A DNA stretch of 64,000 nucleotides, taken from NCBI GenBank assembly GCA_965237415.1, contig CBDEFM010000002.1:3424001-3488000 (forward strand), written 5' to 3'. The position numbers and the translations under genes were made by a program. Source of the DNA: Alphaproteobacteria bacterium. GTDB taxonomy: Bacteria; Pseudomonadota; Alphaproteobacteria; UBA828. The notes below the pieces were generated by a model, which was not told the DNA's origin, made no database searches, and saw only the letters and a list, made by a program, of their open reading frames with translations. Below are positions 1,648-14,152 of this stretch, one piece after another (the first letter of the stretch is position 1; each line of letters begins with the position of its first letter).

Positions 1648-1888
1648 CTACCATCGGACTGGCAGGCGGAGAGGCGCGGGTGGAGAGCCATGAGCTACAC
1701 GATCGCCGAAAAGATTCTCGGGCGCGCGAGCAGGGCAGGCGTGCCGGTGCGGGCCGGCACGGAGGTCGAGGTCAAGCCCGACTATGTGCTGGGCTACGAC
1801 TTCCCCGGCTATCACGACCTCATCTTCAAGCAGATGAAGGAGGAGTTCGGCATTGAGCGCGTCGCCGAGCCGGAACGCTTCGCCCTCT
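1647..1888 (+). repeat. Direct repeat copy 1 (242 bp) of the leader and 5' end of the aconitase-family gene
   Basis: Aligns ungapped to 3836-4077 (offset 2189) with 6 substitutions counted by eye. Confidence 0.95.
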
Positions 1889-1947
1889 GTGTCGACACCA
1901 CGGCGGCCGGCGGTAACGCATCGCTGCTCGCCGAGGCGGGCGGCTAA
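1690..1947 (+). pseudogene. Chimeric remnant: LeuC-like N-terminus fused to a PutA-like C-terminal tail
   Basis: First ~66 aa duplicate the 3879 gene; the last residues LCVDTTAAGGNASLLAEAGG* resemble the conserved PutA C-terminus. Confidence 0.7.
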
Positions 1948-2143
1948 GGCCGGCAGTCTCGCCACCGAAGCTCATGGTGGACAACTTCGAGGGCCTGGCA
2001 ATGGTTCCCGGTTTGGAACGGCGGTACGCTCGTCTACATCCTCTCCGAGGACACCTTCAATTCCCTCCAGCGCACGCTCCTTCTGCTGTTTCGTCTGGAG
2101 GCTTCTTGACGTAGACCCGCGTCAATTCAAGTCTGCTCCGTGC

Positions 2144-3682
2144 TCATCGCGTGCCACCAAAGCCTGCGAGCAGCCGCACGTCCCGGTCGTCGAGAACGCC
2201 GGCCATCTCCTCATGCGCGGGGCCGAAGAACCCGCCCATAATGCGGCCCTCCTCGTCCGAAAACCCGTTGTCGGTGATACCGACAGCGTATTCCAGGTTC
2301 GGCATTTGAAAGGCGCGGGATACGCCATTTACGTCCACGATGAGGTTGTCAAAGCGTGCAGTGCCCGTGAGGACCGCCAGGTCCACGCCTAACGCTGCTT
2401 CGCCGAACACCGGCGGTAGAGCCGCGTGTCCGGTATCGACGCCCAGGAGAGAGCCTGTCCACGTGACTTCGCCCGTCAAGACTGTCGAGTCGGCGAGGTT
2501 CGTCGCGGGGTTCATACCGAACGCATCGGCGGCGGCCCGCAGCCTGTCGCTACTGCCACTCAGGCGGCGCTCCACCCCGACACCCCAGGCGCCATAGCGG
2601 CCCCAGGCGCCATACCCGTAGAGCTCCGGCTCTGACGCGCTTGCCTGGTCGAGGATCTCGTATCCCAGGTCGGTGAGGATCGCGAAGTCGAGCGCGCTCG
2701 GCCCGATCAGATTTCTGTCCCGGCTGCAATAGGCCATCACGGAGGAGCACACACCGGGATGGCCGTAATCGACCTCGGCGCCGCGCGTGCCAGGCGCAAG
2801 CGGCTCCAGATCCGCGTTGATCCATTGGAAGGGCAGAGGCGCGCCGCCGTTGGCCCGCATTGCCTCGGGACCGTCGAACGTGTTGTCGACATAGTTCGCG
2901 TAGCGTTCGAACGAGGGGAAGAACCTGCCCGGAAAGATTCCCAGGACATGCCCGATCTCGTGCGCCAGGTGGGAGGTGTCGTCATGACGTTGCCGAGACA
3001 GCAGGATCGAGCCGAGCCACGGCTCCAGGTCATCGAAACTGTAGTCGTAGTCCTGAAAGCCGCCCGATGAGATATCATCGGAGTCCGGCCCCTTGTCCAG
3101 CACGAAGATGAGGACGCCATCCGTCGTCACCGCTTCGTCCACAGGCATGTGGATATCTCCGTGATAGATGGTCGTCCCCCCCGGCGCATCATGCGTCCCG
3201 AAGTCGTCCAGAATTCGGTAGGACCAGGTCTTCCCCGCACGCTCCATCCGGGCACGCGTCGCCCTGTCGGCATTCTCCGCAAAGCGCCAGTCGAATTCGA
3301 TGTTCAGCGTGCCTGCCGGGCCGCCCTTCCACTGCCCGTAGGTGATCCCGTCCCGCTCGCCGATGATCTCGATGTCATCGGCGCGAATATTCCGCAGCTT
3401 GGTCCCGGCCCTGGCGGCATTGCCGCCTGCACCAGCCAGCAGAGAGCCGATCGTGGCCCGTCGGGCGTCAATGTCCTGCACAGCCACGAGGCCCAGTGCG
3501 CTCCGCAGACGCTCCGGGTCGTTCCAGTGATCGAGCAGGTCCTCCGCTCCCGGATTTCTACGCTCGTGGGCTCCGAATTGGGTTGCGACAGGGCCATCAC
3601 CACTGCCGCCACCGCCACAGCCGATCAGGCCCGGCGCGAGCAACACGGCGATTGCCGCCGTAATCAGCGGTCTGAAAGACAT
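2144..3682 (-). CDS. Lipoprotein with zinc metallopeptidase domain and C-terminal TbpB/transferrin-binding-like beta-barrel
   Basis: MSFRPLITAAIAVLLAPGLIG-C-GGGGSG lipobox; HEIGHVLG; DYGH and SVMAY (possible third ligand and Met-turn); C-terminal WTGSLLG...GGFFGPAHEEMAGV...AGFGGTR. ATG 3682 follows AGGGAGA. Confidence 0.7.
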   Translation of the reverse strand: MSFRPLITAAIAVLLAPGLIGCGGGGSGDGPVATQFGAHERRNPGAEDLLDHWNDPERLRSALGLVAVQDIDARRATIGSLLAGAGGNAARAGTKLRNIRADDIEIIGERDGITYGQWKGGPAGTLNIEFDWRFAENADRATRARMERAGKTWSYRILDDFGTHDAPGGTTIYHGDIHMPVDEAVTTDGVLIFVLDKGPDSDDISSGGFQDYDYSFDDLEPWLGSILLSRQRHDDTSHLAHEIGHVLGIFPGRFFPSFERYANYVDNTFDGPEAMRANGGAPLPFQWINADLEPLAPGTRGAEVDYGHPGVCSSVMAYCSRDRNLIGPSALDFAILTDLGYEILDQASASEPELYGYGAWGRYGAWGVGVERRLSGSSDRLRAAADAFGMNPATNLADSTVLTGEVTWTGSLLGVDTGHAALPPVFGEAALGVDLAVLTGTARFDNLIVDVNGVSRAFQMPNLEYAVGITDNGFSDEEGRIMGGFFGPAHEEMAGVLDDRDVRLLAGFGGTR

Positions 3683-3835
3683 GAGCACTTCTCCCTGCAT
3701 CGTCGCCTAACCCCGACGGGTCGGGCGCGCCCCGGCATTTGCGCGGGCTTGTTGTTCAAGGTGCTTCTTGGGACATGATAATCCTATCCACTCGAGGGAT
3801 TAATGGTGCGCATCCCCCGCCGCCGCCGAGACGGT

Positions 3836-4077
3836 GCTACCATCGGACTGGCAGGCAGAGAGGCGCGGGTGGAGAGCCATGAGCTACACGATCGCCGAAA
3901 AGATTCTCGGGCGCGCGAGCAGGGAAGGCGTGCCGGTGCGGGCCGGCACGGAAGTCGAGGTCAAGCCCGACTATGTGCTGGGCTACGACTTCCCCGGCTA
4001 TCTCGACCTCATCTTCAAGCAGATGAAGGAGGAGTTCGGCATCGAGCGCGTGGCCGAGCCGGAACGCTTCGCCCTCT
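3836..4077 (+). repeat. Direct repeat copy 2 (native position)
   Basis: Matches 1647-1888. Confidence 0.95.
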
Positions 4078-5162
4078 TCATCGACCACATGGTGCCCGCC
4101 AACACGCCGGAGGAGGAGGACCTCCACATCGTCACCCGCACCTGGTGCGCGGAGAACGGCGTGAAGCTGCACGAGCGCGAGGGGATCGGCCATCAGGTGG
4201 CGGCGGAGGCGGGCTATGCCGTGCCCGGCGGCTTCGTCGTCCACTTCGACGGCCACATCGCGCAGCTCGGCGCCTTCGGCACGCTCGCCATCGGCATCCA
4301 CACGCAACTGTTGGAGGCCTTCGTCCGCGAGCGGATCGACTTCACCGTGCCGGAGACCACGCGGGTCAACCTGAGCGGCACGCTCAGCCCCGGCGTCATG
4401 GCCCGCGACGTGTTCCATCATCTGGTGCGGGTGCTCGGCCCCCGCTCTTGCCGCTTTCAGGTGCTGGAACTGGGCGGGCCGGCGCTCGGCGCGATCTCGC
4501 TGGAGGGCCGCCAGACGATCACGGGCCTTGCCATGTTCACGGGCGCGCTCACCGCGATCTGCAACCCGGATCGGCTCGCGCTCGACTATGCGCATGCGCA
4601 CGTGACCCAGCCCTTCGAGCCGCAGGCGAGCGACGCGGACGCCACGTACGCCGCGGTGCACGAGGTCGATCTCACCGGCTTGGCCCCGATCGTCGTGGTG
4701 CCGCCCAATCCTGCGGCCACCGCCGATCTCGCCGACCATGCCGGGCTCGCGGTGCAGTCCGGCTATCTCGGCTCCTGTGCCTCCGGCCGGCTGGAGGATC
4801 TGCGGGCTGCGGCAGCGGTGCTCAAGGGCCGCCGTGTCGCGCCGGGGTTCCAGCTTCACATCGTACCGACCAGCCAGGCGATCATGGCGGCGGCGGCGCG
4901 GGAGGGCCTGCTCGAGACGCTGATCGAGGCCGGTGCCTTCGTCACCTCGTCGTCGTGCGATTACTGCTACGGACGGATCGCGACCATGACCGCGGGCCAG
5001 CGCGCGGTCTCCACCGGCACGCTCAACGTCACGGGGCGCATGGGGAGCCCCGAGTCCGAGATCTATCTCTGCAATGCCGCGGCAGTGGCGGCGTCGGCGC
5101 TGGAGGGGCGGATCGCCGATCCGCGCCCCTACCTCGCGGAGGCGGCGGAGGCTGGCGCATGA
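3879..5162 (+). CDS. Aconitase-family hydro-lyase large subunit (LeuC/HacA/DmdA-like, divergent)
   Basis: TIAEKIL, IDHMVP, GIGHQV, GSCASGRLEDL, SCDYCYG (three 4Fe-4S Cys), GRMG, AASALEG. ATG 3879 after GGAG. Confidence 0.85.
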   Translation: MSYTIAEKILGRASREGVPVRAGTEVEVKPDYVLGYDFPGYLDLIFKQMKEEFGIERVAEPERFALFIDHMVPANTPEEEDLHIVTRTWCAENGVKLHEREGIGHQVAAEAGYAVPGGFVVHFDGHIAQLGAFGTLAIGIHTQLLEAFVRERIDFTVPETTRVNLSGTLSPGVMARDVFHHLVRVLGPRSCRFQVLELGGPALGAISLEGRQTITGLAMFTGALTAICNPDRLALDYAHAHVTQPFEPQASDADATYAAVHEVDLTGLAPIVVVPPNPAATADLADHAGLAVQSGYLGSCASGRLEDLRAAAAVLKGRRVAPGFQLHIVPTSQAIMAAAAREGLLETLIEAGAFVTSSSCDYCYGRIATMTAGQRAVSTGTLNVTGRMGSPESEIYLCNAAAVAASALEGRIADPRPYLAEAAEAGA

Positions 5163-5680
5163 GCCTTGCGCCCCTGCGGGGTCGCGTCGCCTTCGTCTTC
5201 GAGGAGGCGGACTTCGACGTGGACCAGATCGTGGGCGTCGAGAACATCCGTCTCACGGACCCGGATGCGCTCGCTGCCTGCGCCATGCGCCGCTTCGACC
5301 CCGGCTTCGCCGAGAAGGTCGAGCCCGGCGATGTGGTCGTCGGCGCCGAGAACTTCGGCTACGGCCATCCCCACTTCGCGCCGATGATCGGGCTCCGCCG
5401 CTTGGGCATCCGCGCCGTCATCGCCGAGTCCTTCGCCACCGGCTACTGGCGGGAGGAGATCGCCGAGGGCTTCCCGCAGATCGCCTGCCCCGGCATCATC
5501 GGCCTTGCCCGGCGCTGGGACGAGATCGAGATCGACTGGGAGGCAGCGCAAGTTCGCAATCTGAGCCGGGGCGGGGCGCGCGCCATCGCCCCCTATTCCA
5601 GTGCCGAGCGCGGCATGCTGCAGGCCGGCGGGCTCATCCCCTACCTGCGCGAGAAGCTCAGCGCGGAAGGGAGCGGCTAA
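5159..5680 (+). CDS. Aconitase-family small subunit (LeuD-like, divergent)
   Basis: MSLAPLRGRV...DVDQI...PGDVVVGAENFGYG...AVIAESFA...AGGLIPY; ATGA overlap with the large subunit. Confidence 0.85.
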   Translation: MSLAPLRGRVAFVFEEADFDVDQIVGVENIRLTDPDALAACAMRRFDPGFAEKVEPGDVVVGAENFGYGHPHFAPMIGLRRLGIRAVIAESFATGYWREEIAEGFPQIACPGIIGLARRWDEIEIDWEAAQVRNLSRGGARAIAPYSSAERGMLQAGGLIPYLREKLSAEGSG

Positions 5681-6357: not shown

Positions 6358-6969
6358 ATGGGACGAAAGGAGCACCTCGTGGAAAGAGAGGCGCGCTATC
6401 CGGATTACATCGGCATCTCGGATGTGAACACGAAATCCTTCGAGCAGATGCGTGTAGAGGGCTACTTCGACGGCCAGCCGTCAATCATGTTCGACGAGCC
6501 CGAAGGATTCGATATCGGCGATCCACCCGATCTGCAGGGGCGATCGCGGGGTTGGACTCCGGTTCATGCGCAGCTCTGTGCTCTGGCCTCCTGCACGTCC
6601 ATCACCATCACTGTGGTGGCCCGCGACCAGGGCTTCAAATATCAGGATCTTCGGACGAATATCCGCTCTCTCATCGACATCCGAGGCTTCTTTTTCGATC
6701 TGCATCTACAACCTAAATACGAGCAGATCAATTTCGACCTCTATGTGAAGACGCGGGAAAAGACGGAGCGGGTGAAGGACCTTGCGCGGGAAACGGATCG
6801 CCGCTGCCCGCAGATCGGCCTGTTCAGAATGGCAGGCGTTCCCATGATGATGAGCTGGTACCGGGAGGGGTCGAAAAGGCCGTTGTTCGTAGACAAATTT
6901 CATATTGGACGGGGCAAAACACCGGAGGAAAAACTGATCGAGCGGCAGAAAAAGGCCGCAGAGAAGTAA
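6358..6969 (+). CDS. OsmC/Ohr family protein
   Basis: DEP...G...TPVHAQLCALASCTSIT and TDRRCP: the two conserved OsmC cysteines. Confidence 0.75.
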   Translation: MGRKEHLVEREARYPDYIGISDVNTKSFEQMRVEGYFDGQPSIMFDEPEGFDIGDPPDLQGRSRGWTPVHAQLCALASCTSITITVVARDQGFKYQDLRTNIRSLIDIRGFFFDLHLQPKYEQINFDLYVKTREKTERVKDLARETDRRCPQIGLFRMAGVPMMMSWYREGSKRPLFVDKFHIGRGKTPEEKLIERQKKAAEK

Positions 6970-7145
6970 GCCGCATTCCAACTCCATCCTGCTGCTTCCG
7001 GCGAGGAGGAGGTGCTCAGCCTCCCACATCAGAGAGGATGTCTCCGCTGTCGCTACTCCTCTTTGCCACCGGCGGCTGAAGGCGAATCCGCGGCGCGCGC
7101 CGGGAGTCTCCAACCCATTGAGGCGTTATTCTAAGGGGGTAACGA

Positions 7146-7610
7146 ATGTCACGCTCATTCGGTCTCGATGCGGTTTCAGCGCTTGAGGCATTCAAGAGTA
7201 CAGCGGAGAGGTTTCAGGCCGACGACCTCAACGAAGACTTGGCGCGGGATTGCGCCACCAAAGCATGGCATCTTTGCGATCATACGTTCCCTGCCCTCCA
7301 CCCTGCCTCCCAATTTACAAATCTGCCGTATTTCCAAAGGCATGTCAGACAAAACTGCCCTGAACTCGGCTATCTTCAAGACATTTGCATTGAAACAAAA
7401 CACGGCAAGATTACAAATTATGTGCCACGAATCGATAAAACCCGCTATCACGGAGGTGACTTCTCGAAGGACGATTTTGATCACAACGACTTTGATGTTT
7501 CACGGCTTGAGATTACGTTGCCCAGCGGCCAGATAGTGCCATTCAGAAAACTCATCAGCTGTGCTCTCGACTATTGGTCTAAGTTCTTTCGAGATAACAA
7601 AATTACATGA
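7146..7610 (+). CDS. Hypothetical protein, low GC, possibly HEPN-like
   Basis: AT-rich 154-aa ORF after AAGGGGG; AWHLCDH...CPELGYLQDICIETKH pattern; acidic GDFSKDDFDHNDFD stretch. Confidence 0.65.
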   Translation: MSRSFGLDAVSALEAFKSTAERFQADDLNEDLARDCATKAWHLCDHTFPALHPASQFTNLPYFQRHVRQNCPELGYLQDICIETKHGKITNYVPRIDKTRYHGGDFSKDDFDHNDFDVSRLEITLPSGQIVPFRKLISCALDYWSKFFRDNKIT

Positions 7611-7719
7611 ACACGTTTCGCGCACACAGTTTGCACTGCAAGTGAATTTAACCCGCGCGGCATCGCCTCCATGTTCGGCCAAGGCGGACGGCGCGCCTGC
7701 CCGCGCGACCGAGCCAGTG

Positions 7720-7783
7720 TTTGCCGCTCCACCGGCGGGCGCGTAATCTCTGCGGCCGCGCGGAGGGGCGAGGGCCGCAGGGG
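7720..7783 (+). promoter_or_regulatory. Sigma70-like promoter/leader, copy B
   Basis: TTGCCG-N17-TAATCT followed by CTGCGGCCGCGCGGAGGGGCGAGGGCCGCAGGGG. Confidence 0.5.
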
Positions 7784-7818
7784 TCCTGCGCTGCGCTCCG
7801 CCGTCCCGGCGTCTGCCC

Positions 7819-8655
7819 GTGACCTCTGCCCGCTTTCGGACCCCACACGCGCTCGGCCTCGTGGCCGCATTGGTCTTCGCGCTCTTTCCGGTCTTCTGGA
7901 TGGTGTCGACCTCGCTCAAGCCGTTCGGCGAATGGGCGGCGGTGCCGCAGCCCTGGGTACCGCGGGACTTGACGCTCGGGAATTACGCGCCTCTCTACCA
8001 GCAACTGGAGATGAACTACGTCACGTCGCGGGGGACAGGCCTCGGCGCCATTCTCGATTCCTTCATCATCGGCGGCGCCACCACTGTGCTATCGCTCGTC
8101 ATCGGGCTCATGGCAGCGATCGGATTCTCCCGCTACCGCGCCGGCAGCGACCGGCTTGCCATCGCGATCCTCGCCGTCCGCGCCGTGCCGCCGATCACGC
8201 TGGCGATCCCGGCGCTCTTCCTCTTCACCTCCTTCGGCCTGCGCGACACCCATATTGGCGTCATCCTCGTGCACACCGCCTTCGGCGTGCCCTTCTCCTT
8301 CTGGATGCTGAAGAGCTTCATCGACGAGGTGCCGCCCGCCATCGAGGAAGCCGGCATGATGGACGGCATGAGCCGCTTGCGTGCGCACCTGGTCATCACC
8401 GTGCCGATGATCCGGGGCGGTCTCGCGGTCACCGGCCTCTTCATCTTCATCCTCACCTGGAACGAGTTCCTGCTGACGATGACGCTGAGCGACAAGATTG
8501 TCGTCACAGTGCCGCTCTATCTGCACCATCACACCGGCGTCTATGGCGTGCAGGCGGCGCTCGCGACCGCCGCGGCACTCCCCATCGTCTTCTTCGGCTT
8601 CCTGATTCAGAAGCACCTCGCCCGCGCGTTCACGCTGGGCGCGATCAAGCAGTAA
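7819..8655 (+). CDS. Carbohydrate ABC transporter permease (MalG-type), orphan
   Basis: FPVFWMVSTSLKP, hydrophobic TM segments, EAA loop IEEAGMMDGMS, WNEFL, C-terminal TLGAIK. Confidence 0.9.
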   Translation: MTSARFRTPHALGLVAALVFALFPVFWMVSTSLKPFGEWAAVPQPWVPRDLTLGNYAPLYQQLEMNYVTSRGTGLGAILDSFIIGGATTVLSLVIGLMAAIGFSRYRAGSDRLAIAILAVRAVPPITLAIPALFLFTSFGLRDTHIGVILVHTAFGVPFSFWMLKSFIDEVPPAIEEAGMMDGMSRLRAHLVITVPMIRGGLAVTGLFIFILTWNEFLLTMTLSDKIVVTVPLYLHHHTGVYGVQAALATAAALPIVFFGFLIQKHLARAFTLGAIKQ

Positions 8656-8716
8656 ACATTGGGGATTATATACCGGAGTCACAATCAATCATAAGGAGCG
8701 GATGATGGCTATCTTT

Positions 8717-8971
8717 TCAGTAAATTTGCGAACGCAGGTTCGCCGCGACGTTCTCAATGGTGCTTATGACGCCTCGTTCGAAAGACGGTTCGGCCTCAAA
8801 CTCGGCACGATAGCGGCTGCGCATAAGGCCCGGCAGGTCATCGAGGGTGCTGATGACATCGTCGACAAAGGCTCTATCTCGGTCGTTGCAAGCGGTGAGA
8901 AGAGTGATTTTCAAAAGAGTCTCCAACGCGAAGACAGTTCCACGTAGGTGTTCTAACTCTGCATCAGACAT
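8717..8971 (-). CDS. Hypothetical 84-aa passenger protein
   Basis: ORF overlaps the stop of the 53-aa gene by 8 nt and ends ~30 bp before the TIR. Confidence 0.55.
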   Translation of the reverse strand: MSDAELEHLRGTVFALETLLKITLLTACNDRDRAFVDDVISTLDDLPGLMRSRYRAEFEAEPSFERGVISTIENVAANLRSQIY

Positions 8972-9125
8972 CGGATTCGCCGACAGTCTTGACGGTCATG
9001 GGCTGAAGCGCCACCCGCGCAAGCTCTTCGGGCGTTGTGTCGATGGACACATCTTCCTCAAGCTCCGCCTTGCTCGGTTGATAGGTCGCGGGGCGCACCC
9101 GCACGGTGGGTTTGTCCTTGGTCAT
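8964..9125 (-). CDS. Small 53-aa protein inside the IS1595 element
   Basis: Below ORF-track cutoff. GGAGG RBS then MTKDKPTVRVRPATYQPSKAELEEDVSIDTTPEELARVALQPMTVKTVGESDV*; GC-rich codon usage like the transposase. Confidence 0.7.
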   Translation of the reverse strand: MTKDKPTVRVRPATYQPSKAELEEDVSIDTTPEELARVALQPMTVKTVGESDV

Positions 9126-9137
9126 GATCGCCTCCCT

Positions 9138-11711
9138 TCACACCAACGCGCAGTGGTTTTTCCTTGGTGATGGTTGTGGCCAATCAGCAGAACTTGCCGA
9201 CCGAACCGCATGGCCGAAATTGACCCTCCCACCAATTAAATCCTCCACTAGAACGCTAAGCCTATCTCTCTCGCCCCCAGCGGTCATTTTTGGCAGTACA
9301 ATATGAAGCATGTCCTCGGTTGCCACTTGGGCCAAACCATCAGAGCCGGTCGCGAGCGCTCTCATCTGTACCGCGAATATTTCAGAGCATAGACCAGCAA
9401 CAAGATCGACAAGCAGTTCGGAGCGAGTTGGTTTTACTCTGAATCGTGTGCAGCCGTTCGTTACTACCATTCCATCTTGCGCTTCGTATGGAACGATAAA
9501 CCACTTTCCAGCGCACCCCCACACATGTGCTATAAAAATATCCTTCAGATCGGCCTTCAACTTTGCCCTCCCCGGCGATTCCCAGCCTCTCATTTCTTTG
9601 AAGTCGTATGATCCATAACGCACATCTTCTATTTCGACGTATCGGTACACCGTGGAGGCTTCAGGCCTGAACTTCTCCCGCTCAACTTTTTCTAACACTT
9701 CTCCGATTGGAAAGTGGTCGATGGACCTGACCTCCCTTAGCAAACTCTTATACTTTGCGCAGTATCGCTTCGGATCGAGCATCATTCTTCTACTGCTTAT
9801 AATCTGCGCAACGGGCGTTGTCTCTGACTGACCACCTTCCGGCAACTCTCGATCACTGAGTATCCATGGATAAAGACCTGCCACAGCCGACCGCCTGTAT
9901 TCGTCTAGCATTTGGCTAAAATCGCTATCGAGAATAGGGTTGTTGTTAGCATCCAACACAATGTTCCCGGTTGTCTTATCGCGGAGGTACACTGGCTTAG
10001 CAGTCTTGTCGCCTGCCTGCCACCCAACTGACTCAATCATGCCAAAATATATTGGATAATCTTCACTGTTACAGGCATCGGCGAGTGGGGCTTTTCTACG
10101 CTCTAACACTACTACAGAGGCGCTCACATCTGCGCCCGACTTTTTGAATGTGAAGCGCGGGAATGCAACCACCGCCACTACTCTAGCATGGCGCAACATC
10201 CACTCACGTAATGCAAAATACTCGCTACTGGTATTACCAAGATAACCATTCGGTAAGATGATCCCAACACGACCACCTGGTTTAGCGAGCTTCACACATA
10301 ACTCAACAAATAATATCCCAGTCTGTTGAGCCTTCCTCGCGTCAAGGGTCTTCACGAAACGGCCATCGTCGCCGTGGTGCCACACATGACCCATGTCGAA
10401 GTTTCTCAAAACCTCCCATCGTTTTTCCACAATTCTCGTCCCAAACGGCGGATTGCACAACACCACGTCGTAGGAAGCTTCTGACCCAGGGTGGTTCTTC
10501 AAACTGTCATCTTCATGTATGCTAGTCTTCCCGTCGCCCTGAAGCATCATATTCAGGACACTTACTTGGACAGCTTGACGACTGTTGTCTACTCCGGTGA
10601 GAAAATCCACGGCCTTTCCCGGAGTTATAGGCATCGTGCGCAGAGCGCTAACCAAAAAATCAGCACTCCCGCAGGCGGGGTCACATACGTGCTCTAGTGT
10701 TGGGTTTGTCGCGCTCACGATAAAGTCAACGACTTCGTGTGGTGTAAAGTATTGTGCCAAATCCCATTTGTATAGGTCCTTAGCAAACCGCATGTAGAAT
10801 GATTGTATCACTTTCTGTTTAGAGTTCAAGATATTGATAGGAGCAATCACCTGCGAAAGGCGTCGCAGTGCTTCAGGATTCAGCGGACGAAAAGTCGACA
10901 TCACTTCATCTGGAAGAAATCGATTGTAGTGGCCGACTGCCTTAGAGAGAAACGAGTCCAATCGTTCAAGTACAACCTCGTCAGTTATAGGCATTGCGTT
11001 GAAGTCCTGGATACTCAAATCATTGTCTGGGCGATCCGAATGGGAGACCTCATCCCATATCTTCGCCAAAAGTAGCTGAAAAAGAATAGCGTACCTACGC
11101 GGCTTATCCGTCACGTATGGATGCAGGCAATTCTCCATCTTGTCAAAAGCGCCTGAAAGGTCTGGGGATGGCGTCAAGTCTGCATATGTAAGCAACGTAG
11201 AACCCACACCCTCCATCCATCGCGGCATTTTGCTGATAGGCGCCTCTCGGATGGTTGCTAAGGTCCCCTCCAATTCGCGATAGAAGAACCGTTGCTCCAT
11301 ATCATCCCAGTAGACGCCCAAGGCATTCATGTCTGGAAGCAAGGAAAGTGCCGGCTTGAGCTGTGAGTCAACCGCCGATTGTTTCGACGCATTCTCGCGC
11401 TTTATCTCAGCAACGACCACCGTTTTGGACAAACGCTTTTCATCAGGCCAATTTGTCACTTCTGACCACGGCACATCATATACAGAAAAGTCAGCACGCA
11501 AAGAATTGTGCCCCGCGTGTCCCAACTTCATGATTCTTGTTTCAATGCCGAAATGATCTTGGGGGTAGTCTTTCTGAAGAAGATATCGGATAGCGTCTAT
11601 GCGTCTCTTTTCTTCAGTAAAAGTAAACCCATCTACTGCCCGTTGGCGAACTTGTAGTTGGCCGCGAATGGGGCAGTGAAGGAACGCGGCTTCCGTCGAA
11701 TTCACGATCAT
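9138..11711 (-). CDS. Single-chain restriction-modification enzyme (HsdR_N-like nuclease + N6-adenine methyltransferase + specificity region; Type IIG-like)
   Basis: EEKRR...RADFSVY...AEIK (PD-D/ExK-like); QYFTP; DPACGSADFL (motif I); NPPFG (motif IV); HsdS-like C-terminus. ATG 11711 overlaps the transposase TGA. Visibly lower GC than flanks. Confidence 0.85.
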   Translation of the reverse strand: MIVNSTEAAFLHCPIRGQLQVRQRAVDGFTFTEEKRRIDAIRYLLQKDYPQDHFGIETRIMKLGHAGHNSLRADFSVYDVPWSEVTNWPDEKRLSKTVVVAEIKRENASKQSAVDSQLKPALSLLPDMNALGVYWDDMEQRFFYRELEGTLATIREAPISKMPRWMEGVGSTLLTYADLTPSPDLSGAFDKMENCLHPYVTDKPRRYAILFQLLLAKIWDEVSHSDRPDNDLSIQDFNAMPITDEVVLERLDSFLSKAVGHYNRFLPDEVMSTFRPLNPEALRRLSQVIAPINILNSKQKVIQSFYMRFAKDLYKWDLAQYFTPHEVVDFIVSATNPTLEHVCDPACGSADFLVSALRTMPITPGKAVDFLTGVDNSRQAVQVSVLNMMLQGDGKTSIHEDDSLKNHPGSEASYDVVLCNPPFGTRIVEKRWEVLRNFDMGHVWHHGDDGRFVKTLDARKAQQTGILFVELCVKLAKPGGRVGIILPNGYLGNTSSEYFALREWMLRHARVVAVVAFPRFTFKKSGADVSASVVVLERRKAPLADACNSEDYPIYFGMIESVGWQAGDKTAKPVYLRDKTTGNIVLDANNNPILDSDFSQMLDEYRRSAVAGLYPWILSDRELPEGGQSETTPVAQIISSRRMMLDPKRYCAKYKSLLREVRSIDHFPIGEVLEKVEREKFRPEASTVYRYVEIEDVRYGSYDFKEMRGWESPGRAKLKADLKDIFIAHVWGCAGKWFIVPYEAQDGMVVTNGCTRFRVKPTRSELLVDLVAGLCSEIFAVQMRALATGSDGLAQVATEDMLHIVLPKMTAGGERDRLSVLVEDLIGGRVNFGHAVRSASSADWPQPSPRKNHCALV

Positions 11712-12678
11712 GCCCCCGAACATAGACCATGCGGAGCGATCAAGTCCCGATACCGTAGAGGTGCCCCTTCCAAGCCCTTCACCATCGCGCCCATCATGTC
11801 GATGGTATCGGCTTCACGATCATTGTGCCGGCCGGCAAACTCGCCGACATACCGATCAAGGTGCTTTTCGCTGAAATGGTGGAAGGTGCCGTTGTAGCCC
11901 CGCTTCAACATGGACCAGAAAGACTCGACCCCATTGGTGTGGGCCATCCCGCGAACGTACTCACCGGCGGAGTGGCAAACCGCCTCGTGATCGAAGGGCA
12001 ATCCCTCGTAGGCGCTAGCGTCATCGGTGAACACCTTAGCGTCGGGCGCTGCGTGCTCGGCAACGAAGCCTTGGAGTGTCGGCTTGTCAGTCGCTGTCAC
12101 TGACCGGGCCACGACGCGATTGGTCGCCCGGTCCTTCACGCCTACGACGGCAGCCTTGCCTACCGCTCCGCGTCCTATCAGTGTCTTGCGCTTGGCCTTG
12201 GGCATGTTCTTCCGCTTCCCGCCGATGTAAGTCTCGTCTGCCTCTACGGGGCCGGTGAACATACCGCCGTTGCCGGCCTTCCACCCCTCGCGAAGCCGAT
12301 GCGCCAGATACCACGCCGACTTTTGCGTGATGTTCAGATCGCGGTGCAGTTTCATGCTCGACACGCCCTTGAGATTCGTCGCCAACAAGTAGATGGCGAT
12401 GGCCCATTCCCGATAGCCGAGCTGGGTGCGGTGCATCCAGTGCCGGTCTTCAAAGAGAACATGGCCCGATTCGGGCAGTCCCGGCAACGGTGCGTCATGG
12501 ACTTGTGTTTGATGCCGGCCTGGACGTTCAGGGAGCCGCAGTGCGGGCAAACCGGACCGTCAGGCCAGCGCTGCTCTTCGATCCACTTCTCTGCAGCCTC
12601 GTCGGTCGGGAACATGGCGGTGATCTCGATCAGCGAGATACCCTTGCGGTGAGCCTTCCCCGGTGCCTTGCTTGCCAT
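11708..12678 (-). pseudogene. IS1595-family transposase, frameshifted
   Basis: N-terminal RWPDGPVCPHCGS...RCRDC zinc ribbon (12352-12678 frame) and KGVSSMKLHRDL, VEADETYIGG, TDD, HTNGVESFW, YVGEFAGRHN (11708 frame). Frames join at ACT GG ATG near 12437-12438, one base short of a Val-like codon. Confidence 0.9.
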
Positions 12679-12781
12679 GTCCCTGTCTCCCTGAATTGTG
12701 ACTCCGTTGTAACACGGCTCAGGGCAGGGTGCAACAGGAAATTGTGACTCCGGTATATAATTCCCTAAACATTCTCGGCGT

Positions 12782-14104
12782 TCAGCCGAGCGCCGCGTCG
12801 ACCTCGTCCAGGATCGTGTCGAATATGCCGATGGCGTCCCCGATCTGCGCCGCGTCGATACAGAGCGGCGGGCCGATCAGGAGGCCGTTGAGGCAGGTCC
12901 TGGCTTCCAGCCCGTGCTCCACCAGCCGACGCTTGATGAGGTCGTTGACGGCCGCGTGGTTCGGCGCGGTCGAGAAGGGCGCGTCGGTCGCCGGATCGGC
13001 GGTGAGCTCGATCGACGCCAGCAGGCCGAGCGAGCGCACGTCCGAAACGCTCGGATGGCGCGCCTTCAAGTCCTCGAGGCCCTGCGCCAGTACCTTGCCC
13101 ATCCGGGCAGCATTCTCGATCAGCCCGTCGTTCTCGTAGGCGTCGAGCGCGGCGCACGCGGCGGCGCAGGCGATGGGATTGCCCGTCTGCGTCGAGCCGA
13201 GCGGGAACCACTCGTCGTCGAAGCGGGCGGCGACGTGGGGCCGCATGAGCACGGCGCCCATCGGTATGTAGCCGGACGTGATTCCCTTGGAGACCGCCAT
13301 CAGGTCGGGCACCACGTCCCAATGCTCGATGCCGAACCAGCGCCCGGTGCGGCCGAAGCCGCAGATGACCTCGTCGGCGATCATCAAAATGCCGTGGCGG
13401 TCGCAGATCTCGCGCAGCATGGGGAAATACTCGGGCGGCGGCTTGATCCCGCCGCTCGCGGCCGTCATCGGCTCGACGATGACCGCGGCGATCTGCCCCG
13501 GCCCCTCGCGCTCGATCACCTCTTCCACGCTCTTCGCACACTGCACGCCGCAGCCGGGGTAGGAGAGCGAGAAGGGGCAGCGATGGCAGTAGGGGTCGAG
13601 GAAACGGACGATGTTGGGGTGGTCGTAGCCGACGGCAAGCCGCCTGGGGTCGCCGCTCGCCGACAGCGAGCCCGAGGTGGTGCCGTGGTAGGAGCGGTAC
13701 TTCGCGAGGATCTTGCGCCTGCCGGTGACGAGGCGGGCGATGGTCATCGCGATCTCGGTGGCCTCGCTGCCGCTCCCGGTGAAGAAGGCGGTCTGGATGT
13801 CGCCGGGCGCGATCTCGGCAAGCCTGCGGCCGAGCTTCTCGCGCGCGGCGGTCGTGTGATGCGGGCCGATATAGCAGAGCCGGCCGGCCTGCTCCTGGAT
13901 CGCCGCGATCACCTTGGGATGCTGGTAGCCGAGATTGACGTTCACCAGCTGCGACGAGAAGTCGAGATAGCGTTTTCCGGCCGTGTCGTAAAAGTACGCG
14001 CCCTCGCCGCGCTCCATCTCGATCACGGTCTCGACCGCATTCTGCGCGGCCCAGGGGATGATGTCGTAGCGCCGGTTCGCGCCGGCTGTCGTCGCCTCGC
14101 TCAT
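12782..14104 (-). CDS. Class III (omega-amino acid) aminotransferase
   Basis: GKRYLDFSSQLVNVNLG, SYHG, IVEP, DEVICGFGRTG, SKGITSGY (PLP lysine). ATG 14104 after AGGAGG. Confidence 0.92.
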   Translation of the reverse strand: MSEATTAGANRRYDIIPWAAQNAVETVIEMERGEGAYFYDTAGKRYLDFSSQLVNVNLGYQHPKVIAAIQEQAGRLCYIGPHHTTAAREKLGRRLAEIAPGDIQTAFFTGSGSEATEIAMTIARLVTGRRKILAKYRSYHGTTSGSLSASGDPRRLAVGYDHPNIVRFLDPYCHRCPFSLSYPGCGVQCAKSVEEVIEREGPGQIAAVIVEPMTAASGGIKPPPEYFPMLREICDRHGILMIADEVICGFGRTGRWFGIEHWDVVPDLMAVSKGITSGYIPMGAVLMRPHVAARFDDEWFPLGSTQTGNPIACAAACAALDAYENDGLIENAARMGKVLAQGLEDLKARHPSVSDVRSLGLLASIELTADPATDAPFSTAPNHAAVNDLIKRRLVEHGLEARTCLNGLLIGPPLCIDAAQIGDAIGIFDTILDEVDAALG

Positions 14105-14152
14105 GTCTCCCTCCTGTGCCCCGCGTTCAAACGACGGCGGGCGCGGCACCCG

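Follow-up and report, generated by a model that had tools for sequence, protein, structure and literature searches.

Restriction-modification (R-M) genes are known to be mobile, and how the smallest units of this kind move is mostly unclear. This question is raised by a locus in a 64,000-nucleotide stretch of an alphaproteobacterial genome (Alphaproteobacteria bacterium, contig CBDEFM010000002.1, positions 3,424,001 to 3,488,000 of the forward strand), which is referred to here as the window. Between an ABC-permease gene and an aminotransferase gene, inverted repeats enclose a transposase gene, a gene for a candidate single-chain R-M protein of 857 amino acids (aa), and two small open reading frames (ORFs) of 53 and 84 aa, termed orf53 and orf84. 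What is this unit, and what carries it? In our assessment it is probably a transporter insertion sequence (tIS) of an IS1595 lineage, whose core is formed by a transposase and a 53-aa protein with a slot between them, and whose slot here carries a Type IIG-like R-M system. The vehicle is explicit in this case: an ordinary DDE insertion sequence (IS) with clean ends and a clean empty site, and with one gene that would hold the whole R-M system. Loci, genomes, contigs and sequencing runs are designated below by the letters L, G, C and X, respectively.

Ends, insertion site and transposase of the element

The tIS occupies positions 8661-12765 of the window (4105 bp), an extent defined by its terminal inverted repeats (TIRs), its target site duplication (TSD) and an empty site. 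The TIR at the transposase-distal end (8661-8685, plus strand) and that at the transposase-proximal end (12741-12765, minus strand), from which the transposase ATG lies 62 nucleotides (nt) inward, are identical at 24 of 25 positions. The 25-mer is found at two places in the window, both of them element ends, and in none of 100 shuffles. Immediately outside the TIRs are two copies of the TSD TAAACATT (8653-8660 and 12766-12773), which agree at all eight positions, and the first three bases of the left copy are the stop codon, TAA at 8653-8655, of the ABC-permease ORF that forms the left flank (7819-8655, PF00528). The right flank is a class-III aminotransferase gene (12782-14149, minus strand). 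A preliminary description made from the letters alone had claimed 25-bp TIRs and an exact 8-bp TSD that includes the permease stop codon, and both claims are borne out. The G+C content also separates the element cargo (0.47-0.52) from the flanks (0.64-0.69). A subterminal direct repeat (12695-12706, minus strand), placed between the proximal TIR and the start of the transposase gene, copies the innermost 12 bases of the TIR (CGGAGTCACAAT); this 12-mer has three matches in the window, namely both TIRs and the subterminal copy, where 0.15 would be expected, and the repeat may be a second transposase-binding site.

An empty counterpart of the insertion site was found in two kinds of material. Orthologous permease genes were located by searching 30 relatives, and in the closest of these, a genome of the same genus (G004, locus L012), the left and right flanks of the window meet on a single TAAACATT. 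In addition, Logan contigs from four public metagenome runs (X1-X4) were placed on positions 8400-13000. Contigs from X1, X2 and X4 join 8652 directly to 12766, skipping 4113 bases and sharing eight letters. The joint has a depth of 192.8 in X1, with 22 letters on its shorter side, of 73.4 in X2, with 168 letters, and of 22.5 in X4, with 25 letters; the X2 contig is 364 bases long and spans 8485-8652 and 12766-12961 with five differences. Contigs of the element itself are present in the same runs at depths of ~24 (X1), ~14 (X2) and 5-10 (X4), and the occupied left junction is spanned without differences by an X1 contig (8631-9009). The insertion is polymorphic, whether the empty and filled sites come from one strain or from distinct, closely related ones. 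The element is single-copy in its 4.75-Mb genome, and three further IS1595 transposase genes there share 67-76% DNA identity with that of the element. With its boundaries and empty site established, the element can be said to have inserted into TAAACATT at the extreme end of the ABC-permease gene, probably recently; the insertion duplicated the 8-mer and kept the permease reading frame and stop intact.

The transposase gene lies at 11708-12678 on the minus strand and encodes a Zn ribbon, a helix-turn-helix and a DDE domain. Its Zn ribbon (PF12760, on 12352-12678) scores 45.1 bits against a cut-off of 25.4, its ISXO2-like DDE domain (PF12762) 133.6 bits against 27, and the NF033547 model 180.9 bits against 75, while the NCBIfam zinc-ribbon domain NF050000, at 18.8, stays under its cut-off of 28. 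The ends agree with this assignment, having TIRs of ~25 bp, an 8-bp target duplication and an empty site with one 8-mer, so that the membership in IS1595 proposed in the preliminary description holds. That description also listed four tightly packed, co-oriented genes, with the R-M start overlapping the transposase stop. All four are indeed on the minus strand, and the ATGA overlap is present at 11708-11711, but the transposase is frameshifted as assembled, running in two frames of 108 aa (12352-12678) and 280 aa (11708-12550).

The frame break goes back to one base that is missing near 12437/12438, in the codons for T-V-M, when the gene is aligned with the intact transposase of element L119 (94% identity). 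In all three runs that cover the place, contigs hold an A inserted behind 12437 at full depth (26.9 of 26.9 in X1, 13.4 of 13.4 in X3 and 6.16 of 6.16 in X4; X2 does not cover it). This base restores G-T-V-M-H on the minus strand, and no other differences are listed nearby for the X1 contig. It is therefore likelier that the frameshift arose in the assembly, or as a private mutation, than that it characterises the element. A programmed -1 frameshift was considered as well; its direction fits, but it is unlikely because there is no slippery heptamer and related transposases are single ORFs, and the read contigs hold the extra base. The missing base lies outside any homopolymer run. Were the assembly one of long reads, a modified site might have misled the base-calling systematically, which is pure speculation.

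The 857-aa protein

The candidate R-M gene (9138-11711, minus strand; an alternative ATG at 11723 would give 861 aa) was interpreted through Pfam, alignments, a PDB profile search and structural models. Family libraries recognise its product only in the middle, where residues 318-607 match N6_Mtase (PF02384, 3.4e-29), and a match to PF07669 (2.3e-8) was also obtained. Along the chain, the predicted order of domains is a PD-(D/E)xK nuclease domain (residues ~8-170, with D74, E102 and K104), an HsdM-N-like helical domain (~180-290), a gamma-class N6-adenine methyltransferase (~300-610, with DPACGSADFL and, at 420-423, NPPF) and a C-terminal target recognition domain (TRD, ~663-837). Among 8000 scored candidates, 783 homologues from several phyla were found at E<=0.001, mostly 850-857 aa in length (~855), and they form an uncharacterised family of single-chain enzymes that is widespread in soil, sediment and gut metagenomes. 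D74, E102, K104 and N420-P-P-F423 are invariant in 43 aligned members, the three nuclease residues are invariant also in an alignment of 49 N-terminal regions, and DPACGSADFL is invariant in the aligned family members. Median identity to the window protein is 0.55 for the N-terminal domain, 0.63 for the methyltransferase and 0.48 for the C-terminal part with the TRD; judged from these alignments, the nuclease domain is as conserved as the rest of the protein.

Structural comparison places each of these regions among known R-M folds. AlphaFold models have a confidence (pLDDT) of 84.4 for the whole protein and of 89.7 for residues 1-290. At the N-terminus, residues 28-168 superimpose on the HsdR nuclease domain 3h1t_A (Z 9.4, root-mean-square deviation 3.0, 119 residues), residues 6-290 on BsaXI (8w0p_A, Z 8.6, 248 residues) and residues 17-288 on BpuSI (Z 7.6), and a Foldseek search with the model of residues 1-290 likewise returned BsaXI (E 9.4e-7). 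Residues 180-290 resemble the helical N-terminus of HsdM proteins (Z ~6). Over longer spans, residues 8-615 match BsaXI (8w2p_A, Z 24.6), residues 183-857 match BpuSI (Z 19.9), and residues 320-847 match CamA and M.TaqI (Z 19-22). The PDB profile search of the protein matched HsdM, BsaXI, BpuSI and an S-subunit TRD, in the last case aligning residues 663-837 with the Type I S subunits 5ybb_D and 3okg_A (E 4.5e-4 and 4.9e-4, respectively).

Type IIG enzymes hold nuclease, methyltransferase and TRD in one chain by definition. Since the 857-aa protein combines N6-adenine methyltransferase motifs, a PD-(D/E)xK fold in the same chain and a fused TRD without an S or M partner, it is predicted to be a Type IIG-like single-chain R-M protein that may cleave DNA. 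It resembles R-M subunits of the BcgI/BsaXI type, but its own TRD is fused and there is no S gene within the element, which sets it apart from Type IIB systems, where a separate S subunit with two TRDs accompanies the R-M subunit. The domain architecture and the conservation of the catalytic residues are shown by these comparisons, and they uphold the earlier claim of a single-chain R-M system through the PD-(D/E)xK fold, the invariant D74, E102 and K104, the NPPF motif and the fused TRD. The nuclease fold in particular, which the preliminary description had assigned to PD-(D/E)xK, is confirmed by structure prediction in the matches to HsdR, BsaXI and BpuSI.

An IS1595 lineage with a cargo slot

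Is this arrangement peculiar to the window? We counted as an element of the lineage any IS1595 transposase with an orf53 homologue behind it on its own strand. By this definition, the 18 loci examined, including the window, gave 12 elements (L120, L135, L139, L141, L142 and L145 did not fit), and 35 further loci from an order-level search gave 15 distinct elements, one locus (L179) being a second copy of another (L178) and the other 19 having no transposase, or a fragment only, in the fetched flank. In the resulting 27 elements, the ORFs in the slot were scanned with Pfam and PADLOC. A DNA methyltransferase, a restriction endonuclease (REase) or both were found in the slot of 13 of the 27. The window holds the 857-aa nuclease-methyltransferase-TRD fusion; L119 and L210 hold N6_N4 methyltransferase-HNH fusions, L136 and L195 a methyltransferase and an HNH gene, and L133 a C5 methyltransferase with Vsr. 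Recognised pairs of methyltransferase and REase occur in L137 (EcoRI-methylase-like, with REase_II PDLC03418, 3.1e-143), L140 (REase_II, 6.9e-51), L177 (REase_II, 1.3e-13) and L200 (BglII-like REase PDLC03442, 1.1e-83). A NotI-like REase is present in L188, a methyltransferase only in L201 and an Eco29kI-like fragment in L143. Wherever the slot holds both genes, the methyltransferase precedes the nuclease. Elsewhere the slot is without cargo (L128), holds a dCTP-deaminase-like gene (L197), contains in three elements, respectively, an EamA transporter on the other strand, a nested IS and DUF1508, and in nine holds nothing recognisable.

The junction between transposase and cargo recurs in a similar manner. 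In eight junctions examined, chosen for their intact transposases, the two genes overlap as ATGA in five and by 7 nt in one, and in two they are separated by gaps of 10-12 nt; the start/stop overlap first described for the window is thus found in its relatives too. Both R-M cargo and the overlap therefore recur in this lineage as a matter of observation. Of seven related elements in which both ends were located, four have a TSD that agrees at 8/8 positions and one a TSD that agrees at 7/8. One related element, L119 (G323), is 2492 bp long, with a TIR identical to that of the window and an uninterrupted transposase of 94% identity; the 25-mer of the window TIR also terminates L120.

Several individual loci add detail to this picture. 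L119 is without a target duplication, and a distant homologue of the N6-adenine methyltransferase (26-44% identity over parts of the 857-aa protein) lies outside its IS end (5789), at 6594-7435 of G323:C4 and less than 1 kb from the insertion site. The window's own genome contains a second tIS of the lineage (L118, at 1696-5677 of G000:C1:155500-162500), which is 3982 bp long with the TSD CTAAATTG (8/8), and which has an intact 325-aa transposase, an orf53 homologue, ~1.4 kb of cargo without a recognisable family and, in the position of orf84, a 76-aa coiled-coil ORF. Two copies of one 3.46-kb tIS (L178 and L179, G425:C5 and G425:C7), with identical transposase matches and cargo of no known family, suggest recent transposition of a cargo-bearing member. 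The dCTP-deaminase-like gene in the slot of L197 (G014:C108, 3328-3921; PF22769, 2.8e-33) hints that the slot also accepts other defence-type genes. SocA/Panacea antitoxin-like genes follow the orf53 homologues in L143 and L142. Finally, in L133 (G411:C1, 5640-6449) a Vsr-like ORF and an orf53-like stretch are in frame within one long open frame, for which a genome search of the wider frame gave one internal TAA; this may be a fusion of Vsr with the small gene, or read-through.

The two small genes of the window element differ in standing. orf53 (8964-9125, minus strand) starts 12 nt past the R-M stop and encodes an acidic protein of 53 aa (YQPSKAELEED..TPEEL), and its stop overlaps the start of orf84 by 8 nt. 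It has 131 homologues (E<=0.01) of ~52-54 aa with an invariant QP.KAE core, and in many loci these adjoin IS1595 transposases and TIR-like ends. The minimal IS, L128 (G013), is 1256 bp long and contains only a transposase and an orf53 homologue, with a TSD of 8/8. Judged by these homologues, orf53 is the conserved second gene of the IS1595 lineage, usually beside the distal TIR, and not a part of the R-M system. The family occurs in 10 of 401 genomes in a class-wide sample and in 17 of 20 other genomes of the window's genus, and is patchy, since the orf53 profile matched none of 400 other genomes in a phylum-wide sample. A prediction of a transposase-orf53 complex from alignments scored 0.00, which is evidence in neither direction; we suppose that the protein would serve the IS as a regulator or establishment factor.

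In contrast to this lineage gene, orf84 (8717-8971, minus strand) is a small helical protein of a rare family and lies in a variable stretch of 298 bases (~8688-8985) that other copies lack. The stretch is absent from L119 and is swapped for 26-27 other letters in contigs of X2, X3 and X4. A word-indexed search with orf84 gave no matches, and relatives were found only by an exhaustive HMMER search of 1.84 billion representatives, with seven at E<=0.001 (best identities 60% and 56%); in view of these seven, orf84 is probably a real but rare gene. Neither small protein has a Pfam, NCBIfam or PADLOC family, and the ESM Atlas places both in unnamed clusters only. The gene set listed in the preliminary description, including both small ORFs, is thus present, with the qualification that the 53-aa ORF is the lineage's own gene and that the 84-aa ORF sits in a stretch missing from other copies.

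Viewed from its other side, the 857-aa family has few fixed surroundings. Across 87 loci of the family, no partner gene is conserved once clusters of near-identical contigs and the IS1595 transposase are set aside. Of the 56 loci with 1000 nt or more of upstream sequence, 5 have this transposase immediately in front of the gene and in the same orientation; it is intact in L021 and L065 and decayed in L005 (truncated), L009 (internal stops) and L010 (deletions and a stop), with the R-M gene whole in these last three. In L021, a related TIR pair encloses the transposase, the R-M gene and two other ORFs, while no clear ends came to light when TIRs were sought around the 857-aa gene of L005, L009 and L010. 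In a plasmid collection, the nearest relatives of the protein reach only 34% and 32% identity, under the annotation 'N-6 DNA methylase'. In L006 (OZ252253.1, 9686-13117, minus strand), an 856-aa homologue is accompanied by a second, distant methyltransferase ORF (817 aa) that immediately follows another IS1595-type transposase (324 aa) on the other strand, an independent pairing of transposase and methyltransferase.

Outside the element, the window contains a second patch of low G+C (0.48-0.58) at 6400-7800, upstream of the permease gene. Its part 6400-6977 is kept in same-genus genomes (~86%), and the remainder, including an ORF at 7146-7610 (154 aa, no Pfam family), is unmatched in the fetched relatives except for short pieces of L012. 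This patch may be another insertion or a variable region.

Function, competing explanations and known systems

How would such a unit work? From the architecture described above we infer that the TRD and the gamma-class methyltransferase would recognise a short DNA motif and methylate one of its adenines at N6, and that the N-terminal PD-(D/E)xK domain would cut close to such sites where the DNA is unmethylated. Phage or plasmid DNA that enters the cell would be restricted as a consequence, and cells that lose the element while the enzyme persists would be at risk (addiction), so that the element could confer protection from phages, stabilise itself, or both. The four genes would form one operon read from the transposase end and translationally coupled, a suggestion based on the ATGA overlap, the 12-nt gap before orf53 and the 8-nt overlap of orf84. 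The start/stop overlap, which would tie expression of the cargo to the transposase, is a testable item beside the conserved 53-aa protein. A bolder version is tentative and, we think, more doubtful than not: the unrecognised IS1595 lineage may be a dedicated shuttle for compact R-M cassettes, with a core of transposase and 53-aa protein, a slot that extends from the ATGA to the start of the small gene, the methyltransferase placed first, a coupled operon, the 53-aa protein as a new factor, and cargo that punishes loss of the IS. If so, the 53-aa protein would either modulate transposition or help a naive genome to survive when a restriction enzyme arrives, and the R-M cargo would penalise cells that lose the IS.

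Several observations weigh against a mobile tIS with a working R-M cargo. At the level of the lineage, an R-M gene could not be recognised in 14 of the 27 elements, of which one is empty and 13 hold different or unknown cargo, and the 857-aa gene itself occurs mostly outside recognisable ISs, since 51 of the 56 loci with enough upstream sequence have no IS1595 transposase there. The shorter side is under 31 letters in two of the three empty-site joints, and because the runs are metagenomes, the empty-site and restored-frame contigs may stem from related strains. Were the frameshift real for this strain, ribosomes would halt at 12352 and could not be coupled to the R-M start, and the element would need a transposase provided in trans. 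A scan for promoters and terminators gave counts no higher than in shuffles, and contigs of the X4 RNA library over the 857-aa gene, which come from a 97-98% relative and may be DNA carry-over, are no evidence that it is transcribed. A conserved PD-(D/E)xK fold, finally, is no proof of nuclease activity.

This last point leads to the strongest competitor, in which the 857-aa protein acts in practice as a DNA adenine methyltransferase on its own, its nuclease-like domain being inactive or only binding DNA, and the IS would spread an epigenetic mark or protection from other restriction systems. The public names of relatives, which are only 'N-6 DNA methylase' or 'type I restriction enzyme M protein', are consistent with it, as are the best curated family match (the methyltransferase model MAD2, 179.3 bits), the methyltransferase without a recognised nuclease in L201 and the record of a tIS with a methyltransferase passenger (IS220, IS1380 family; excerpt of PMC11891212). 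We nevertheless find it unlikely, given that D74, E102 and K104 are invariant in 43 and 49 diverse members, that the nuclease domain is as conserved as the rest, that the N-terminal fold matches the nuclease domains of HsdR, BsaXI and BpuSI, and that sister elements hold complete methyltransferase-REase pairs in the same slot. The same match to MAD2 (1.1e-52; PADLOC mad2, 1.5e-31), together with weak matches to PglX (4.8e-4) and hsdM (3.4e-4), could also mean that the protein supplies the methyltransferase to a MADS, BREX or Type I system of several genes, the other parts of which lie elsewhere. Its scores, however, are far under the curated cut-offs (179.3 bits against 720 for MAD2, NF047738; 18.1 against 500 for BREX PglX, NF033452; 19.4 against 242.75 for Type I HsdM, TIGR00497), the IS ends enclose the gene with only a transposase, orf53 and orf84 and no hsdR, hsdS or brx gene, and there is no conserved neighbour in the 87 loci, making this explanation very improbable and already disfavoured.

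The remaining alternatives concern the other genes of the element. The copy in the window could be a dead relic, with a real frameshift, immobile by itself, in which the R-M gene persists as a domesticated chromosomal gene. The one-base deletion relative to the intact homologue, the three of five transposase-bearing loci of the 857-aa family in which the transposase has decayed beside a whole R-M gene, and the single copy in the genome would all be expected of a relic; we rank it behind the solitary methyltransferase and likewise regard it as unlikely, because the frame-restoring base is present in contigs of X1, X3 and X4, with no other listed differences nearby in the first, because the TSD is perfect and the TIRs nearly so, because empty and occupied sites co-occur in the same runs, and because a related tIS exists in two copies in one genome (L178, L179). 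Improbable, too, is the proposal that orf53 and orf84 function with the R-M system and not for the IS, whether as a controller, as an antitoxin-like pair or as an anti-restriction factor setting the time of restriction in a newly entered genome. In its favour are the position of both genes immediately behind the R-M gene (12-nt gap, 8-nt overlap), the small size and acidity of orf53, and the many elements in which relatives of orf53 follow R-M cargo. Against this, orf53 is also present in the cargo-less L128 and with non-R-M or unknown cargo, tblastn found neither ORF in any of the 86 other loci of the 857-aa family, the orf84 stretch is absent from otherwise similar copies, and neither ORF belongs to a known family. 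A tIS of the IS1595 lineage carrying a Type IIG-like R-M system thus remains the explanation that we prefer. That one IS backbone carries such varied R-M cassettes (BglII-like, NotI-like, EcoRI-methylase-like, methyltransferase-HNH fusions, and C5-methylase with Vsr) suggests that there is a general way of reshuffling and spreading defence or addiction modules within chromosomes, down to the scale of single genes.

Among characterised enzymes, BsaXI (Type IIB, 8w0p/8w2p) and BpuSI (Type IIG, 3s1s) are built like the 857-aa protein, with a PD-(D/E)xK N-terminus, a helical domain and a gamma-class N6-adenine methyltransferase in one chain, although sequence identity is only 12-24%. BsaXI requires a separate S subunit, whereas the 857-aa protein has a single S-like TRD fused at its C-terminus in an element without an S gene.

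For mobile units, COG3677, a group met again below, presumably corresponds to IS1595-type transposases. The comparisons that follow draw on excerpts of the cited papers. The IS1595 tISs tISCpe8 and MTnSag1 have 25-bp TIRs, an 8-bp target duplication and passenger genes (PMC5704250), and are like the window element in their IS1595-type DDE transposase, the length of TIRs and duplication and the internal position of the passengers; they carry lincomycin-resistance and mobilisation functions, in contrast to the R-M-type gene and conserved 53-aa gene found here. IS220 of the IS1380 family is a tIS with a methyltransferase passenger (PMC11891212), and thus shares with the window element a DNA-modification-type passenger on an IS but differs in IS family. 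Transposon-like R-M units with short inverted repeats and 8-bp duplications have been described (Furuta, Abe and Kobayashi 2010; PMC2853133). Their unit in Neisseria gonorrhoeae NCCP11945 likewise has an R-M system within inverted repeats (26/26), an 8-bp duplication, an empty site in a relative, a Type IIG homologue and a COG3677 transposase-like gene; it differs in that its Type IIG gene is truncated, its S subunit is separate and its transposase-like gene was judged likely inactive, and what moved it was left open by its authors (PMC2853133). In the literature searched, no IS1595 tIS with R-M cargo, nor this lineage, the 53-aa gene or a specificity for the 857-aa protein, is described, with earlier cataloguing possible and PMC2853133 the nearest account. 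Compared with the N. gonorrhoeae unit, the window element can be assigned to an IS family, its single-chain enzyme is intact and has its TRD fused, and the same slot is used by a whole lineage. A mobile R-M system on a transporter IS is therefore a known sort of unit, to which the present element adds a recurring R-M slot and a conserved small gene.

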